From assembly GCA_020845475.1 (NCBI GenBank), contig JADLFN010000072.1, positions 2,849 to 66,848 of the forward strand: a stretch of DNA of 64,000 nucleotides, written 5' to 3'. Origin of the DNA: Planctomycetota bacterium. Lineage in GTDB: Bacteria > Planctomycetota > UBA8742 > UBA2392. Under the pieces are notes generated by a model. That model was given only the letters and a program-made list of their open reading frames with translations, was not told the DNA's origin and searched no databases. Positions 4,478-47,686 of this stretch are shown in pieces. Numbering within the stretch: the first letter of the stretch is position 1; each line of letters begins with the position of its first letter. A program made the translations under genes and the position numbers.

Positions 4478-5095
4478 TCAGCGCCTGAAAGCCTCGCGCG
4501 CATCAGCGAACTTGAACGTGACGTTGTACGCGCCCTCTCCGCGCTTCTTCCTATCGACGTTAATGGCGTTAGCGGCGTCGATTGCGAGCGACACAAAGGC
4601 CCACGGGGCCGTGCCTGATCTCGCACCCAAGGTCGCGTCCTTGGCAAAGCTGATTTCAAGTTTGTCAATCGTTGCGCCGCTTTGTGCGATGTACGAGAGG
4701 CACGCCTCTTTCAAGGCGGCATGCGTGCGGGCATAGATTTCGTGCTTGCGCGCAACCTCTGACGGCCCGTCCTGGTCCAGTGGCAGCAGTTCCGTCAGCG
4801 CCACCTGGGAATTGGCGACTGCTTTCCTTCCGCGCGCGCTGATTCCGATCGCGAATTGGCCCTGCGCGGCATCGGCGTCCCACTGGCAGTAAATCGTGAG
4901 CTGTTCCTGCGGCGCCGGCGGCTGGTCGGGTCGAAATCCTTCAGTCGTACTCAAATGAGGCTCAAAGCGGCGCTCTTCCTGCTTGAAGCGCGTGCAAACG
5001 ATGAAGAAGATGAGCAACTGAAACACACAGTCGATCATCGGCGTCATGTCAAAGCTGGGCAGGTTCGGGGCGCGGCGTCTCCGGTTTCTCGACAT
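4478..5095 (-). CDS. exbD: ExbD/TolR family biopolymer transport protein (paralog 3)
   Basis: PSFDMTPMIDCVFQLLIFFIV matches ExbD/TolR N-terminal TM signature; start trimmed to MSRNRRRR. Confidence 0.8.
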   Translation of the reverse strand: MSRNRRRRAPNLPSFDMTPMIDCVFQLLIFFIVCTRFKQEERRFEPHLSTTEGFRPDQPPAPQEQLTIYCQWDADAAQGQFAIGISARGRKAVANSQVALTELLPLDQDGPSEVARKHEIYARTHAALKEACLSYIAQSGATIDKLEISFAKDATLGARSGTAPWAFVSLAIDAANAINVDRKKRGEGAYNVTFKFADAREAFRR

Positions 5096-21093: not shown

Positions 21094-21921
21094 TCAAGAC
21101 TTCGTTTCACGCACTATGGGCGCGCTGCCCAGCAGTTCCACGGCCAGCAGCACGTCGCTATGGACCTTCTTGCGCGTGTCCATGGTGTAATTGCGCAGCA
21201 GGTAGGCCGGGTGATAGGTGCAAACCACCTTCCTTCCTTTGTAGTCGAAGGCCTTGCCACGCAATTGCCCGATTGCGAGCTGGCTGTTGGCGAGCCACTG
21301 CGCCGGAAAGCGACCCACGGCCAGGATAACGTCCGGGTTGATTATCTCGATCTGGCTCTCAAGGTATCCGCGGCAGGCCTCGATTTCGTCCGGCTCCGGA
21401 TTGCGGTTTTCCGGCGGACGGCACTTGAGCACGTTGGCGATATACACATCGGCGCGCTTGTACTTCATCCCCTTCTCGATGATCTCGGTCAATAGCTGCC
21501 CCGCGCGGCCAACAAAGGGTTTGCCCTGCACGTCTTCATCGCCACCGGGCGCTTCCCCGACAACCATGAGCCGCGAATTCGGGTTCCCCGTTCCGAACAC
21601 CGTTTGAGTGCGGGTCGCACAGAGGCGGCACGCGCCGCACACTCGCACTCGCTCGGCAGCCTTTTCCAGCTCTCGTGCAGGCCGGCCTTCATGTTGCTTC
21701 AATTCGTCCAGCGCCACACTGGCGACGATCACTGGCTTGAGCGCGGCCTTGGCCGGTTTTGCGGCGGGGACAGCAGCCTGTCTCGCCAAAGGCGCGGCCT
21801 GTGGCGCACCAACCTGTGTCGGCTTGCGCTTGACAGCGATATGCGTCAGACCGCCTGCGCGCAGGAGCTCTGCGTGGCCGCGAAGTTGGCGAGCGAGTTC
21901 GGCCTTGGTGGGTCGCGCCAT
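21094..21921 (-). CDS. udg: uracil-DNA glycosylase, family 4 (4Fe-4S type)
   Basis: motifs CGACRLC...GEAPGGDED...GKPFVGRAGQLL...HPAYLLR. Confidence 0.85.
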   Translation of the reverse strand: MARPTKAELARQLRGHAELLRAGGLTHIAVKRKPTQVGAPQAAPLARQAAVPAAKPAKAALKPVIVASVALDELKQHEGRPARELEKAAERVRVCGACRLCATRTQTVFGTGNPNSRLMVVGEAPGGDEDVQGKPFVGRAGQLLTEIIEKGMKYKRADVYIANVLKCRPPENRNPEPDEIEACRGYLESQIEIINPDVILAVGRFPAQWLANSQLAIGQLRGKAFDYKGRKVVCTYHPAYLLRNYTMDTRKKVHSDVLLAVELLGSAPIVRETKS

Positions 21922-29501: not shown

Positions 29502-31193
29502 CTAGTTCTGATCTACGGCAAGGCCTGATGGCACCGTAGCCGGGATCTCTTGCAGGCGCTGAACGAACTGCGGGTCCGTCAACGCGCTCATGAAGGCCAC
29601 CATGTCGTCGCGTTCCTGCTGGCTCAGGTTGTTTGGCACCTGCAGGAACAGCGGCGAGAGATTCTGCGTCACGAGGTTCGCCGGCAGCAGCGTGGGCGCC
29701 AGTTGCGCGCCCTGCAGCATGTTCGTGCCGGTGTATGCCTGCGTGAACGCGGCTTTGTCGCGATAGAACAACATCAGTTCATCGAGGCTGGAGATCGCAC
29801 CGTTGTGCATCCAAGGGCCGGTAACGGCCACGTTGCGCAGAGGCGGCACGCGGAACTGATAACGGTTCTGCGGATTGCCCGTCACGTTCTGAAAGCCGAA
29901 ATCTTCGCGGCCGCTGGGCCCGTTGCCCTGTCCGGGACCGAATTGCGGCACGCCCTCGTTGTGCGTCGAGAAATTGCTCAGCATGGGCCCGCTGTGGCAG
30001 GCATCGCAGGCGCCGCGGCCGAAGAACACCAGCGCGCCGCGCTTTTGCTGCTCTGCCATGGCGGTGGAATCGCCGCGCAGGTAGCGATCCCAGGGCGAAT
30101 CAATGAATGTCAGCGAACGCTCGTACTGCGCAATGGCGCGGCCAATATTGTTCACCGTCAGGCCCACTTCCGCTGAACCAGCGGGGAACGCTGCGTTGAA
30201 AAGCGTGACGTACTGAGGAATCGCCTGCAGGCGTGCCACGAGCGCCTGACGGTAGTCGGCGTTGCTCAGACCGTCGAGCGAGTGGCCCGTGCCGCGCATT
30301 TCGGTGATGTTCACCAGCGGGAAAAGGGCCTGCGCTTCATCGGGGGCAAGCTGCATCTGGCCTTCGGGCGTGTTGACAAAATTCGGCGGAGGCGGAGGGG
30401 GCGAGCCGGGAGGCGGAGGAGGCGGCAGTGGCCGCTCAATGCGTTTGTCCCAGAACATCGCTGGCATCAGGTGCGTTGCGAACACTGGCTGGGCATTTCG
30501 GGGCACAAACGTGTTGCTGGGGTGCGTGCGGCCCGGGCCAACGTTGCCCTGGCCGGCACCGCCGACGCCGCCCACGCCAATCGAGAGATTGAGCGAATCG
30601 CCCATATTCTCGGACGGGTGGTGGCAGGTCGCGCAAGCAACGTCCAAGTTGCCGCTGAGGATCTTGTCGAAAAACAGCATGCGGCCCAATGCCAACTGCG
30701 CCGTATTCAGGGCCGGAAGCTGCGCGGCAGTCAGGCCTGTGATGTTTTTGTTGGCGATGACCTGACGCAGTGCGCTCTCGGAGCCGGGCCCTACGTTGAG
30801 TGTGAACTGTCGAAACGCGCTTCCCGCAGCGTCGGCCACCGTAATCGTGAACGTGAATGGACCCTGCGACGTAGGCGTGCCGCTGAGCGTGGTGCTGGCC
30901 GTCGTGCTTGACGTGTCCAGCGCAAGGCCCGCCGGCACGCTGCCGGTGATCGTCCATGAATAGGGCGCCGTGCCGCCGCTTGCATCCAGGTTGGTCGTAT
31001 AAGCCGCGCCGACTTGCGCGTTAGGCAGCGTCGTCGTGACAAGGGCAATCGTGCTTCCGCCGCCGCCGCCACCTCCTCCGCCACCGGAGCCTCCAGAACT
31101 GGAGCCGGAATCGCCAGGCCCTTCAAAACAGCCGGTCGCGAGCATGCAGAACAAGCCGCTCAGCGCGAAAAACGCAAAGCAAAGGTGTCTCAT
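29502..31193 (-). CDS. ccp: di-haem cytochrome c peroxidase family lipoprotein with N-terminal Gly/Ser linker and Ig-like domain
   Basis: two CxxCH motifs (CATCHH, CDACHS), CCP/MauG-like regions, lipobox LATGC, poly-Gly linker, Pro-rich insert. Confidence 0.8.
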   Translation of the reverse strand: MRHLCFAFFALSGLFCMLATGCFEGPGDSGSSSGGSGGGGGGGGGGSTIALVTTTLPNAQVGAAYTTNLDASGGTAPYSWTITGSVPAGLALDTSSTTASTTLSGTPTSQGPFTFTITVADAAGSAFRQFTLNVGPGSESALRQVIANKNITGLTAAQLPALNTAQLALGRMLFFDKILSGNLDVACATCHHPSENMGDSLNLSIGVGGVGGAGQGNVGPGRTHPSNTFVPRNAQPVFATHLMPAMFWDKRIERPLPPPPPPGSPPPPPPNFVNTPEGQMQLAPDEAQALFPLVNITEMRGTGHSLDGLSNADYRQALVARLQAIPQYVTLFNAAFPAGSAEVGLTVNNIGRAIAQYERSLTFIDSPWDRYLRGDSTAMAEQQKRGALVFFGRGACDACHSGPMLSNFSTHNEGVPQFGPGQGNGPSGREDFGFQNVTGNPQNRYQFRVPPLRNVAVTGPWMHNGAISSLDELMLFYRDKAAFTQAYTGTNMLQGAQLAPTLLPANLVTQNLSPLFLQVPNNLSQQERDDMVAFMSALTDPQFVQRLQEIPATVPSGLAVDQN

Positions 31194-40200: not shown

Positions 40201-40227
40201 GTAGGGGCGACGCATGCGTCGCCCTAC
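40201..40227. repeat. palindrome GTAGGGGCGACGCATGCGTCGCCCTAC (REP-like copy 3)
   Basis: between convergent gene ends. Confidence 0.75.
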
Positions 40228-40661
40228 CGGTTGAAGGTGGAGCTACCACCAACGAGGTCGGCCGTAACGATCAAATCGCGAGGCTCGCTGTCGTATACTC
40301 CGACGCATTTGGCTTTCCACTCGTTGTGCCGGCCGCCGAGCACGACGTAGTCAGCCGGTTGAAACTCTGAACCGGCCAACGCACCGCGCGGCATGTCGAG
40401 TTCCGCCATCGTCTGCGGAATTTTACCCGTGCGTTGATACACAACGCGGGCGCGGTCCTTCATCGCGCCCAGCGCCGCCCGGGCCTCGCTGGGGCGCGGC
40501 TCCTCTACACCGCTGGGCTGAATCGGCCAAAAGGCCATGAACCCGACCGCCGGCACAACCAAGCCGAGGATGAGCACTAACGGAATCCAGTCCGTCCACT
40601 TCACAACGTAAGCGGACCGAACTGTCGCGTGTACACCAGAAATCTGTTGTTCGTCCGCCAC
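40224..40661 (-). CDS. small bitopic membrane protein, pilin/pseudopilin-like paralog family (member 4)
   Basis: TM helix then conserved SEARAALGAMKDRARVVYQRTGK, C-terminal FNR; see findings. Confidence 0.6.
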   Translation of the reverse strand: MADEQQISGVHATVRSAYVVKWTDWIPLVLILGLVVPAVGFMAFWPIQPSGVEEPRPSEARAALGAMKDRARVVYQRTGKIPQTMAELDMPRGALAGSEFQPADYVVLGGRHNEWKAKCVGVYDSEPRDLIVTADLVGGSSTFNR

Positions 40662-40664
40662 CGC

Positions 40665-41093
40665 TCACCTATTGAACCGAGCCTCGCCTGTCTTGAGGTT
40701 GCATTCAAGCCGCAAATGACGCGGCTCTGCCGAATAGACATTGTGGCACTCCGCCCACCACGATTCCGGCGTGCCGCCGCAGGAGTAGTCGTTGTTCTTG
40801 AAGTATGTGCCGTCAAGTTCCGTTGCACCAAGCCCCAGGTCTTCCTTGCGGATTTCGGTCAGTTCGGGTCGTCGCTGACAGATGACGCGTGCGCGATCCT
40901 TCATGGCGCCCAGAGCGGATCTCGCTTCACTCGCATTGGGCGGGTCACCATTCTGGATCAGCGGAACTTGGCTGAGGACAACCACTCCAATCACCAGTAC
41001 CAACACAAACGCAATCGCCAGGTACTCGAGGCAGCTCGCAATCCTGCTCAGGATCGTTCTGGGGGCAGCAACAGTGTTCGCAGGCGCGGTCAT
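40665..41093 (-). CDS. small bitopic membrane protein, pilin/pseudopilin-like paralog family (member 3)
   Basis: TM helix, SEARSALGAMKDRARVICQRRPELTEI, C-terminal Cys pairs, ends ARFNR. Confidence 0.6.
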   Translation of the reverse strand: MTAPANTVAAPRTILSRIASCLEYLAIAFVLVLVIGVVVLSQVPLIQNGDPPNASEARSALGAMKDRARVICQRRPELTEIRKEDLGLGATELDGTYFKNNDYSCGGTPESWWAECHNVYSAEPRHLRLECNLKTGEARFNR

Positions 41094-41096
41094 GGC

Positions 41097-41573
41097 TTAC
41101 CTGTTGAACGACGCCGATCCCTGAACCAGGTTTGCCTCGATACGCAAATAGCGCGGCTCGGATTCATAGACGTTGTCGCACTGGGCCCACCATTTTTCCG
41201 GCGTGCCGCCGCAGGTGAAGTTCTCGCTGCTGAAGTAACTCCCGCTTAGCTCAATCTTGCCCATGCCGAGATCATCAAACGAGATCTCCTTCAGGGTCGG
41301 GTTTTTCTGGTACACAACCCGTGCACGGTCCTTCATTGCCCCCAGTGCGGCGCGAGCTTCTGCAGCTCTGACCTCGTCGCTCGGATGCCGCAATTGGTAC
41401 TCTTTGTAGGCAAAGCCAAGGCCCCAAAGCACGAGGAACAAGCCTACGGCAATCAACGCCAGCTTCCCCGGCCCGCCGATGGTGCGGTGCCAACCCGCCC
41501 CGCCGGCGCGACCACCATCTTGCGAGGCATCGGCATTCAATCGGGCAGGCTGTGTTGTCGACTTCGGTTCCAT
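41097..41573 (-). CDS. small bitopic membrane protein, pilin/pseudopilin-like paralog family (member 2)
   Basis: TM helix, AEARAALGAMKDRARVVYQKNPTLKEI, CGGTPEKWWAQCDNVY, ends ASFNR. Confidence 0.6.
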   Translation of the reverse strand: MEPKSTTQPARLNADASQDGGRAGGAGWHRTIGGPGKLALIAVGLFLVLWGLGFAYKEYQLRHPSDEVRAAEARAALGAMKDRARVVYQKNPTLKEISFDDLGMGKIELSGSYFSSENFTCGGTPEKWWAQCDNVYESEPRYLRIEANLVQGSASFNR

Positions 41574-41576
41574 GGG

Positions 41577-42191
41577 TCACCTATTGAAGCTCGTTCTGCC
41601 GGTAGCCAGATCGGCCGTCACAATCAGTTCCCTGGGCGAGGCCGAATACACACTGCTGCAGTGGGCCGTCCAACGCTCGGGGCTGGCGTTCGTGATGCGA
41701 TAGTGGCTTGCGTCGAAGTAGCTTCCGCGCAACTCCACATCGGTCAAACCCAGTTCCTTAAGCGTCGCGGGCGCTTTGCCGGTGCGCTGATAAACCACGC
41801 GCGCGCGATCTTTCATGGCGCCCAAAGCCGCGCGCGCTTCGCTGCTTCTGGCCTCGCCGCCGCTCGACGACCGAAGCGGAATCGCCGCAAGAGTGAGCAA
41901 CCCCAGCAGCAAGAGCACAAAAACCCACTGCAACGGAGTGCCGCCCAGCAAGCGCCCAACGAAACGACCCAAACGTCGCGCGGAGGGGACATGGACGACA
42001 TACCCATCAAATAGCGGTGGCGCGGCTTCGGCCCCGGGCTGCAAGCGGCTTCCCGCCCAGCGATAGGGCACCCCTCCCCGTGGTTTCCGCGCCACCGCCA
42101 TGCCGCGCGCCTTGCCGTACTTCATCCGCGCGGCCAGTTGATCGATCCAAATCAGATCCGTATCGCTGCGCATGCCGCCCCCAGAGCCCAT
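41577..42191 (-). CDS. small bitopic membrane protein, pilin/pseudopilin-like paralog family (member 1)
   Basis: TM helix, SEARAALGAMKDRARVVYQRTGKAPATLKEL, ends TSFNR; true start may be internal. Confidence 0.55.
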   Translation of the reverse strand: MGSGGGMRSDTDLIWIDQLAARMKYGKARGMAVARKPRGGVPYRWAGSRLQPGAEAAPPLFDGYVVHVPSARRLGRFVGRLLGGTPLQWVFVLLLLGLLTLAAIPLRSSSGGEARSSEARAALGAMKDRARVVYQRTGKAPATLKELGLTDVELRGSYFDASHYRITNASPERWTAHCSSVYSASPRELIVTADLATGRTSFNR

Positions 42192-45574: not shown

Positions 45575-46831
45575 TTACTTACCTCGCATAACCTCAGAGC
45601 GGAGCTTCCTCAGCAGAAATGACCAATTCGCGTGATCCACCTGGAGTTGCCTGCGCCCCGGATCTGCCCGCCCGTAGTCTGTCTGGGTCACGCGCACGAC
45701 CGCGTCCTCGCCCTCGGCGCGAAAACTGAGGGTAGTGCGGCCCGCCAGCAGGCCATCGGGCGCAACGTTCCACCTGCCGACGAATTCAATTTCGTTGGGG
45801 CCTGTCCCCTGTTTACGAACACCTTCGAATCGGAGAGGCGCTGGTTCGAACTCGGCGTTCAGTCCATCGTTTTCCAAGATTACGGGCCCTTCGTCATCGG
45901 GCGACAGGCTGGATTTTGCCCCCAGCCATTTCGCGAGCAGGCTGGCATCGTCCCAGAACTTACGAGCTCTATCAACTGACGTTGATTTGAGCGTAATTTC
46001 GAGCGTCATATAGTATCCACTGTCATTCGCAGGGCGTACGCCGAACGAATAGAGAAACGGATCATTGCTCGGTCGTTCACATCGCAGCCATTTCTCTTGT
46101 CCCTTGAGGTATTGCACCGGCCCAATCGTCGGTGAAATCCAGATCGTCTCTCTGGCGCTCTCCTGACCCACTGCGGCAATCTCGATTCGCCAGCAGCTAC
46201 GTGTCGTGCCGAAAACCTCGACCGCCGCTTGCTCTTCGCAAATAGCGCGAATTCGACCTGCATCCGTGAAGCCCTGGGTTTCGTCGAACAGGCGCCGCGT
46301 CCAGCTGACTCCGGACTCATGAGGTACGCCCGTGGCGGCGAACGGAAACAACTGGCTGATGCAATCGTCGCTCCAAGCGAGGTTCACAACTCCCATGCGC
46401 CCGCTATTGTCGCGCGCCTCAAACTTTGGTGATGACCCGGTGCCGTCAAAGTGAGAAACCAACTCTCCGTCCTTTGCGTATGTGGCACGCTCCATTTTCA
46501 GCATGGGGTCCATTCGCAGGCGCTGAAACGTGCGAATCTCGACACCAGCGGATCGGCGAAAGACCTCAAGTGTGATCTTCCGAATGTCCATGCTCAGGCG
46601 CGCAAAGCCGCGGCCGGCCCGTTCCGTTGGGTCGGTGATCCTAAACCAGCAAACACCAACAGGGAAATCACGGAACTCTTCAACGCGTAATTCTCGCAAG
46701 GGCTTTGGCGCCGGTGCACTGTTTGCCGGATGTTCAACACAGGGAGAAGGCAGTTCGGCTGGCCGTGTTCCGCCTTCGCTTACGCAGGCAGCCAGAAGCA
46801 GCACCAGTATCATCACAACGCAGCCACGCAT
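45575..46831 (-). CDS. putative lipoprotein, hypothetical
   Basis: MILVLLLAACVSEG lipobox-like signal. Confidence 0.5.
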   Translation of the reverse strand: MRGCVVMILVLLLAACVSEGGTRPAELPSPCVEHPANSAPAPKPLRELRVEEFRDFPVGVCWFRITDPTERAGRGFARLSMDIRKITLEVFRRSAGVEIRTFQRLRMDPMLKMERATYAKDGELVSHFDGTGSSPKFEARDNSGRMGVVNLAWSDDCISQLFPFAATGVPHESGVSWTRRLFDETQGFTDAGRIRAICEEQAAVEVFGTTRSCWRIEIAAVGQESARETIWISPTIGPVQYLKGQEKWLRCERPSNDPFLYSFGVRPANDSGYYMTLEITLKSTSVDRARKFWDDASLLAKWLGAKSSLSPDDEGPVILENDGLNAEFEPAPLRFEGVRKQGTGPNEIEFVGRWNVAPDGLLAGRTTLSFRAEGEDAVVRVTQTDYGRADPGRRQLQVDHANWSFLLRKLRSEVMRGK

Positions 46832-46925
46832 CTCGACATCTTACTAGGTCTGAGCAGCCACCAGCGCAGACAAACCCTGCTCGACTCTTGCGTTCGTTCA
46901 AGCTAGAACAAAGCGAGGAGCACTC

Positions 46926-47405
46926 ATGACAGACTCACTCTACGCGCTCAAGACCAAGACGCTCGATGGCAAGGACTTTGACCTAGGCTCGCTCAAGGGC
47001 AAAGTCACGCTCGTCGTGAACGTCGCCAGCTACTGAGGGCACACGCCGCAATACTCCGGTCTGGAGAAACTGCACGGCGAACTCAAAGCCAAGGGCTTTT
47101 CGGTGCTCGGCGTTCCCTGCAACGACTTTGGCAAACAGGAACCGGGCAGCGCGGCCGAGATCCGCGAGTTCTGCGACACCAAATACAAAGTAACGTTCCC
47201 CCTGCTCGAAAAGCAGCAAACGAAGGAAGGTGCAGGCCAATCGCCGCTCTACGCCTTCTTCAAGCAGCAGAGCGGCGAGCTGCCCAACTGGAACTTCTGC
47301 AAGTATCTCGTGGGCAAAGACGGCAAAGTGGTCAAGTTCTATCAGAGCAAGGTCAAACCGGACGACGCCGACTTGCGCAAGGCCATCGAAGCGGCACTCA
47401 AATAA
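46926..47405 (+). CDS. gpx: glutathione peroxidase with in-frame TGA (putative selenocysteine) at catalytic position
   Basis: MTDSLYALKTKTLDGKDFDLGSLKGKVTLVVNVASY-TGA-GHTPQYSGL...LGVPCNDFGKQEPG...WNFCKYLVGKDG; TGA at 47034-47036 replaces catalytic Cys/Sec; same frame continues as track ORF 47103..47405. Confidence 0.6.
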
Positions 47406-47686
47406 TGGGCATTCACCACGACAACAGCCACGAATTGCGGGACTTCACCGTGGTCATTGACGCGGCTGACGGCTCCTTGATCATCGGCCGCTTCAAGGAG
47501 CAGGACGACACCCACGCTGTGCTGCAGGACGCCGACACACACCAAGAGGGCAAAGGCGGCAAGAGCAACGCGGAGTGGCTGGAAGCCGCGGCCAAATGGG
47601 GTCATTGGCCACGGATCAAGCAGTTGCGCGTGCCGCTGGCGGACATCAAGCAGCTCAGGCGTCTTGGTGATATCGCAAAGGCTTGA
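47405..47686 (+). CDS. hypothetical small protein (93 aa)
   Basis: TAATG overlap with gpx stop; high GC3. Confidence 0.45.
   Translation: MGIHHDNSHELRDFTVVIDAADGSLIIGRFKEQDDTHAVLQDADTHQEGKGGKSNAEWLEAAAKWGHWPRIKQLRVPLADIKQLRRLGDIAKA

Follow-up and report, generated by a model that had tools for sequence, protein, structure and literature searches.

A glutathione peroxidase gene of a Planctomycetota bacterium, with an in-frame UGA at the catalytic codon, probably encodes a selenoprotein

The window analysed here, i.e. the whole stretch of 64,000 nucleotides from a Planctomycetota bacterium, carries a glutathione peroxidase (GPx) gene that reads through one TGA codon (Table 1). The frame translates as ...VTLVVNVASY*GHTPQYSGLEKL...LGVPCNDFG...NWNFCKYL..., and this TGA, in the context VTLVVNVAS-Y-TGA-G-H-T-P-Q-Y, is its sole internal stop. 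The preliminary description of the stretch had followed the same frame from its ATG through the TGA into the open reading frame 47103..47405, and the coordinates it gave are exact. When Cys is put at the TGA codon, the product matches the Pfam profile GSHPx (PF00255) over positions 1–108 of 108 (2.2e-35, 120.9 bits, for a gathering threshold of 27).

Table 1. Features of the GPx locus (positions are those of the window)
Feature	Position	Strand	Remarks
Shine-Dalgarno-like GAGGAG	46915..46920	+	5 nt before the ATG; read from sequence
GPx gene, 159 codons (160 with TAA)	46926..47405	+	translation, Pfam GSHPx
ATG start	46926..46928	+	read from sequence
In-frame UGA, predicted Sec codon	47034..47036	+	peroxidatic residue, NVAS-Y-U-G-H-T, UxxT motif
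bSECIS-like stem-loop, 36 nt	47044..47079	+	fold -12.0 kcal/mol, z = -1.9
Upper stem CUCC/GGAG	47054..47057 / 47063..47066	+	4 bp, the minimum allowed
Apical loop GGUCU	47058..47062	+	Gly45-Leu46 codons GGU CUG
Lower stem	within 47044..47079	+	CGCC/GGCG and GCA/UGC; interrupted by internal loops
TAA stop	47403..47405	+	read from sequence
93-aa ORF, function unassigned	47405..47686	+	ATG overlaps the GPx stop (TAATG)

The TGA codon is aligned to a Cys in all the full-length homologues inspected and to the peroxidatic Cys36 of yeast Gpx3, so that it does occupy the catalytic Cys/Sec codon to which it had been assigned at first reading. Yeast Gpx3/Orp1 is also the best match among solved structures (PDB 3cmi, 4e-38): the peroxidatic position, the Gln of QEPG, the Trp and Asn of WNF and the resolving Cys all align. 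The key residues of the window protein are U37, C65, Q71, C83, W122, N123 and C125, and the catalytic tetrad (Sec/Cys, Gln, Trp, Asn) is found complete, as U37, Q71 (KQEPG) and W122-N123 (NWNF), in register with that of Gpx3. C83 (EFCDTKYKVTFP; EFCDTKY) aligns with C82, the resolving Cys of the yeast enzyme (QFCQLNYGVTFP), in the alpha-2 “Cys block”; this would place the protein among the Gpx3/Orp1-like 2-Cys GPx and predicts that it uses thioredoxin. The two proteins differ at the peroxidatic residue itself, predicted to be Sec in the window and Cys in yeast. An extra Cys, Cys65 (VPCNDFG), distinguishes the window GPx from its nearest planctomycete Cys-type homologues, which have a Ser there. 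As in bacterial selenoprotein genes, the UGA is aligned with the redox-active Cys of homologues, and the coding sequence is conserved on both sides of it.

The 93-aa open reading frame that follows has no match in Pfam or NCBIfam. The TAATG overlap suggests that it is probably co-transcribed and translationally coupled with the GPx gene. It lies downstream of the Sec-type GPx in all contigs of the window lineage, and a protein 41% identical is encoded in the Planctomycetota MAG SJ126 (locus L011, 3803–4075, minus strand). It diverges faster than the GPx: between the window and contig L001, identity is 80% for the 93-aa protein versus 97% for the GPx.

The same TGA was found again in other assemblies, by two routes. 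Starting from a C-terminal fragment with 98% identity (P0014 of the protein collection), two metagenome contigs bearing it were reached, and the downstream 93-aa protein gave six further contigs, five from Logan and one from NCBI (GCA_963204935.1), all split alike. In the nine independent assemblies, which represent five haplotypes, the TGA is invariant, without any frameshift or second stop. The polymorphic codons of these haplotypes, synonymous versus non-synonymous, number 4 and 3 upstream of the TGA, 13 and 4 downstream; codons +2 to +10, corresponding to the core of the hairpin described below, do not vary, and synonymous changes occur at codons +1, +11, +12 and +14. The invariance of the TGA, the lack of a second lesion and a polymorphism that is mostly synonymous show that both halves are maintained as coding in one frame.

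A small hairpin, CUCC-GGUCU-GGAG, had been noticed about 20 nt downstream of the TGA in the preliminary description, and it lies exactly where it was placed, as the upper part of a 36-nt stem-loop. The published bSECIS model (PMC13188914) allows an apical loop of 3–9 nt, an upper stem of 4–16 bp, a G in the first two loop positions, a distance of 16–37 nt from the UGA and a minimum free energy of -7.5 kcal/mol or below; the window element fits it, with its GGUCU loop of 5 nt, its stem of 4 bp, its spacing of 21 nt and its -12.0 kcal/mol. The model alone is nevertheless not discriminating, since 60% of the Cys-type control genes (see below) hold some G-loop hairpin of at least 4 bp in the allowed range. 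The stability of the fold does not set it apart either: 14 of 200 shuffles fold as well as the 13-mer (z = -1.6) and 10 of 200 as well as the 36-nt element (z in Table 1), the z score for a region of 62 nt is -0.43, and 37% of the synonymous-codon resamplings of the same peptide match or exceed the stability of the hairpin. By itself, the hairpin is thus weakly better than chance. Rfam returned no SECIS match in the region, either at gathering thresholds or at permissive E-values, and we regard the weak permissive matches (CRISPR-DR23, ArcZ and others) as noise. Stability being uninformative, we relied instead on the conservation of the hairpin register, compared with Cys-type genes.

Scanning one genome per species for the pattern V-N-V-A-S-x-TGA-G-x-T-x-x-[YF] yielded at least 120 loci. 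All the readable loci among the matches listed are GPx open reading frames that run through the TGA, with intact frames and a conserved N-terminal part. The matches listed belong mostly to Acidimicrobiia (Ilumatobacteraceae), the others to Gammaproteobacteria (Pseudomonadales/Halieaceae), Myxococcota, Binatia, Limisphaerales and Clostridium tunisiense, and to three Planctomycetota MAGs (loci L011, L054 and L108). As controls we took Cys-type genes from a metagenome scan for the peptide context TPQY-x-GLE with TGH at the catalytic codon: the codon is TGC or TGT in 120 of the 120 matches listed, which provided 113 distinct full-length genes, 91 of them with a G+C content of at least 55%.

In the register test, consecutive pairs are counted outward from the loop formed by the Gly-Leu codons. 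Among the matches listed, a stem of at least 4 bp is found at this register in 119 of 122 distinct Sec-type sequences, and it reaches 7 bp in 108. At the opposite, the longest stem at this register in the Cys-type controls is 2 bp, and 0 of 113 have 4 bp or more; in Cys-type genes from viral contigs the figure is 3 of 46. The Gly codon of the loop follows the same division: in the 122 Sec-type genes, again among the matches listed, it is GGU in 108, GGG in 13 and never GGC, versus GGG in 43, GGC in 41, GGA in 17 and GGU in 12 of the 113 Cys-type genes. The hairpin register is specific to UGA-containing GPx genes. Comparing the window gene directly with its Cys-type planctomycete relatives (P0001–P0120) leads to the same distinction: they are 70–75% identical over the full length and share the context TPQY-x-GLEKL, but they have a Cys encoded by TGC or TGT, are for many of them extended at the N-terminus (up to 254 aa), and show no stem at the Gly-Leu register. 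The alignment with Sec- and Cys-type homologues proposed at first reading thus finds the TGA at the Cys position, and at least 120 further bacterial GPx genes have a TGA there too; together with the Sec-specific register, these genes uphold the initial suggestion of a probable selenoprotein.

In about 100 of the Sec-GPx genes listed, the codons for Gln-Tyr-Ala-Gly-Leu-Arg-Thr form GUACGCA-GGUC-UGCGUAC, a perfect stem of 7 bp whose GGUC loop starts 21 nt after the UGA. The hairpin of the window, and those of L054 and L108, stand at the same place, on Ser-Gly-Leu-Glu codons. The window protein, about 40% identical to this large clade from Acidimicrobiia, Gammaproteobacteria and Myxococcota, differs from it by its element, a 4-bp CUCC/GGAG stem with a GGUCU pentaloop where the clade has the 7-bp GUACGCA/UGCGUAC stem with a GGUC tetraloop; because of the pentaloop, the 3' pairing register is shifted by one nucleotide. 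The core CUCC-GGUCU-GGAG is identical in L054 and L108, whose proteins are 59% and 50% identical to that of the window, and no covariation is seen in its stem because it is the same in the three lineages having it.

Several observations were made on the 7-bp element itself. It is almost invariant across several phyla (L003–L122; e.g. L005, 4594–4660, plus strand), the few compensatory changes being UAU/CAU in L076 and UCC/AGU in L114. It fixes the peptide Q-Y-A-G-L-R-T/A, the Cys-type genes having Q or E in place of R. Its apical 10 nt (GCAGGUCUGC) are those of the E. coli fdhF SECIS. Such uniformity means that the element could serve as a simple and specific search pattern.

The likeness of the window hairpin to the fdhF element, put forward in the preliminary description, holds for the loop; the spacing differs by 3 nt. 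In E. coli fdhF, 18 nt separate the TGA from GGTCT; the match is 100% in 5,420 genomes, where the gene carries the annotation of a selenocysteine-containing fdhF. Both genes thus have an identical GGUCU apical sequence and a short G+C-rich stem within the coding region after the UGA; the loop is 18 nt from the UGA in fdhF and 21 nt in the window, one codon further. The fdhF element has a bulged U in its upper stem, which is absent from the CUCC/GGAG stem, and the lower stem of the window element is broken by internal loops.

The machinery for selenocysteine insertion was looked for in the vicinity. None of SelA, SelB and SelD was found with Pfam among about 50 larger open reading frames of the window, about a dozen smaller predicted ones being left out; no tRNA-Sec was found in its 64 kb, where the sole tRNA is a tRNA-Val. 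Scans with ARAGORN and with motifs, in which SelA and SelD were represented by ad hoc regular expressions, covered the window and loci L001–L202 (120 metagenome loci left out) and gave no SelA, SelD or tRNA-Sec. In the literature, which includes PMC4807772, full selA/B/C/D sets are described in two Porphyra-associated isolates, Gemmata obscuriglobus and Isosphaera pallida, and the machinery is absent from some other Planctomycetes; the trait is thus plausible for the present lineage, but not guaranteed.

Altogether, this GPx almost certainly has selenocysteine as its catalytic residue, specified by a recoded UGA. As a whole, the gene very probably encodes a cytoplasmic, monomer-type peroxidase of GPx fold whose peroxidatic residue 37 is a selenocysteine inserted through SECIS/SelB decoding. 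Taking fdhF as the paradigm for SelB recognition and Sec insertion, and the 2-Cys GPx for the reductant, we infer the following scheme. The GGUCU apical loop would be presented to SelB during translation, and SelB would deliver Sec-tRNA(Sec) to the UGA located 21 nt upstream, in competition with release factor 2. The selenolate of Sec37 would then reduce hydroperoxides, giving a selenenic acid; by homology, this is most likely resolved by Cys83 into a selenenylsulfide, whose recycling would depend on thioredoxin rather than glutathione.

Other readings of the interrupted frame have nevertheless to be considered. The gene could be a decaying pseudogene, derived from a Cys-type GPx (TGC or TGT) by a nonsense mutation with loss of function: its closest full-length homologues, at 70–75% identity, are all Cys-type, gene callers report two fragments, and neither the window nor loci L001–L202 revealed any Sec machinery. 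However, the stop sits on the single codon where Sec is known in the GPx family; it is fixed in the five haplotypes, where the polymorphism flanking it on either side is mostly synonymous and no further lesion is present; downstream of it come the Sec-specific register of the hairpin and a GGU codon for Gly; and the same arrangement recurs in at least 120 other species. Such a decay is therefore very unlikely.

The UGA could also be read without Sec, by a near-cognate Trp or Cys tRNA or by leaky termination, to give a weakly active or inactive enzyme, the hairpin merely slowing the ribosome. The fact that no Sec machinery was seen among the larger open reading frames scanned in the 64-kb window and a hairpin that is short and of ordinary stability go in this direction. 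On the other hand the loop has the SelB-binding GGUC(U) motif of fdhF, at a spacing common to more than 100 Sec-GPx genes; an enzyme with Trp as its peroxidatic residue would be catalytically dead, which does not fit the conservation observed; and other predicted open reading frames of the window end in TGA, indicating that this organism uses UGA as a normal stop codon. We give this mode of reading very little credit, and keep to the insertion of selenocysteine.

Public annotation follows yet another reading. The gene calls of JGI, NCBI, ENA and Logan split the GPx into a product of 36–41 aa labelled “glutathione peroxidase-family protein” and one of 100–111 aa labelled “glutathione peroxidase” or “phospholipid-hydroperoxide glutathione peroxidase”; in the window these are 46926–47036 (36 aa) and 47103–47405 (100 aa). 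The flanking proteins are numbered MCC6151487 and MCC6151489, which leaves one accession number free between them, and no full-length record of the window GPx was present among the matches of the protein homologue search. That the locus holds two real small genes, as the products called by JGI, NCBI and Logan would have it, is however extremely improbable: neither piece has the complete GPx fold, the C-terminal one misses the catalytic residue, both are in one frame with the TGA and the SECIS region alone between them, and the start of the second varies with the haplotype (GTG at 47103 versus an upstream TTG, hence 100 or 111 aa), as is usual for an artefact of gene calling. Finally, a sequencing or assembly error turning TGC or TGT into TGA, a prior possibility raised in the preliminary description to which we found nothing to add, is refuted by the nine independent assemblies and five haplotypes, since the TGA is common to ENA, Logan and NCBI assemblies of different samples that differ at about 3% of other positions.

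Sec-containing GPx (PF00255, UxxT) is an established bacterial selenoprotein family, “predicted with high confidence” according to a 2026 review, and was reported in Treponema denticola (WP_010957027.1) and in five Sargasso Sea sequences. The window protein shares with these GPx the fold, the Sec at the same NVAS-x-U-G-x-T position and the coding-region SECIS immediately downstream. The family is thus already known and the window gene is a newly found, mis-annotated member of it, i.e. a routine extension and not a new mechanism. No Sec-GPx appears among the planctomycete selenoprotein candidates of PMC4807772. With at least 120 loci for one genome per species, Sec-GPx are much more widely distributed than the few sequences cited in the selenoproteome literature would suggest. 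As for the window, a gene that we take to be functional is yet recorded as two fragments in public data, so that the peroxide-defence capacity and the selenium dependence of this planctomycete lineage are under-called.

The relationships between Sec and Cys forms bear on the origin of the element. The nearest full-length proteins to the window GPx are Cys-type planctomycete GPx (70–75% identity); among the Sec forms, identity is 66% for L011, 59% for L054, 50% for L108 and about 40% for the large Sec clade. From these nearest-neighbour identities one could imagine that Sec arose independently, by convergence, in each of the planctomycete lineages; this idea was downgraded, because the rooted tree suggests a basal Sec grade. 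In this neighbour-joining tree, a rough one rooted on the large Sec clade and without bootstrap support, about 60 Cys-type sequences form a crown, below which the Sec forms diverge in the order L108, L054, the window lineage and L011, the last being nearest to the crown. Such an order is consistent, tentatively, with an ancestral Sec form having been replaced by Cys.

Outside the window lineage, the nearest Sec-type relative is L011, from MAG SJ126 (TGA region at about 4480–4540, minus strand). It retains GGU CUG, but the CUCC/GGAG pairing is lost (CACC...GCAG) and the region folds instead into an alternative hairpin, UGCAG-AAG-CUGCA. Either this gene has another kind of SECIS, or it is heading to inactivation or to Cys replacement. 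It is conceivable, if somewhat doubtful, that planctomycete GPx have their own minimal SECIS class, with a CUCC/GGAG stem of 4–5 bp and a GGUCU pentaloop, and that the series captures a Sec-to-Cys replacement. This minimal class, carried by Ser-Gly-Leu-Glu codons, may be distinct from the 7-bp GGUC-tetraloop form, although in both the SelB-binding loop would fall on the Gly-Leu codons. If true, the amino acids next to the loop (Ser/Glu here, Ala/Arg in the large Sec clade) would be imposed by the RNA element.

The neighbours of the GPx are housekeeping genes: NuoD, an O-methyltransferase, histidine biosynthesis, PGK, GroEL and the type IV pilus PilM/secretin. The records of the neighbours include NuoD (MCC6151486.1), the hypothetical proteins IT461_14645 and IT461_14655 and an MPG glycosylase (MCC6151490.1). 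Between NuoD and the GPx, a hypothetical gene (45575–46831, minus strand) is called as 418, 412 or 309 aa depending on the assembly; contig L124 does not have it, NuoD being there directly upstream of the GPx, which represents a strain-level insertion/deletion.

A heuristic search of the window for genes with an in-frame TGA gave the GPx as the only candidate without overlapping genes. Two other matches, at 21096 and 40667 on the minus strand, were rejected as adjacent separate genes sharing a frame by chance.

A second peroxide-related gene of the window lies about 16 kb from the GPx (29502–31193, minus strand); its 563-aa product carries a domain of di-haem cytochrome c peroxidase (CCP_MauG) and shows, close to the N-terminus, a weak PKD-like match. 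Besides, four paralogous genes are found in tandem at 40224–42191 (minus strand), encoding proteins of 145, 142, 158 and 204 aa with gaps of about 3 nt between them. Each of these proteins starts with a hydrophobic helix and ends with a conserved domain of about 95 aa (SEARAALGAMKDRARVVYQ ... FNR-stop); they are 43–60% identical to one another and have no match in Pfam. We presume that their motif resembles the helical part of type IV pilin-like proteins.
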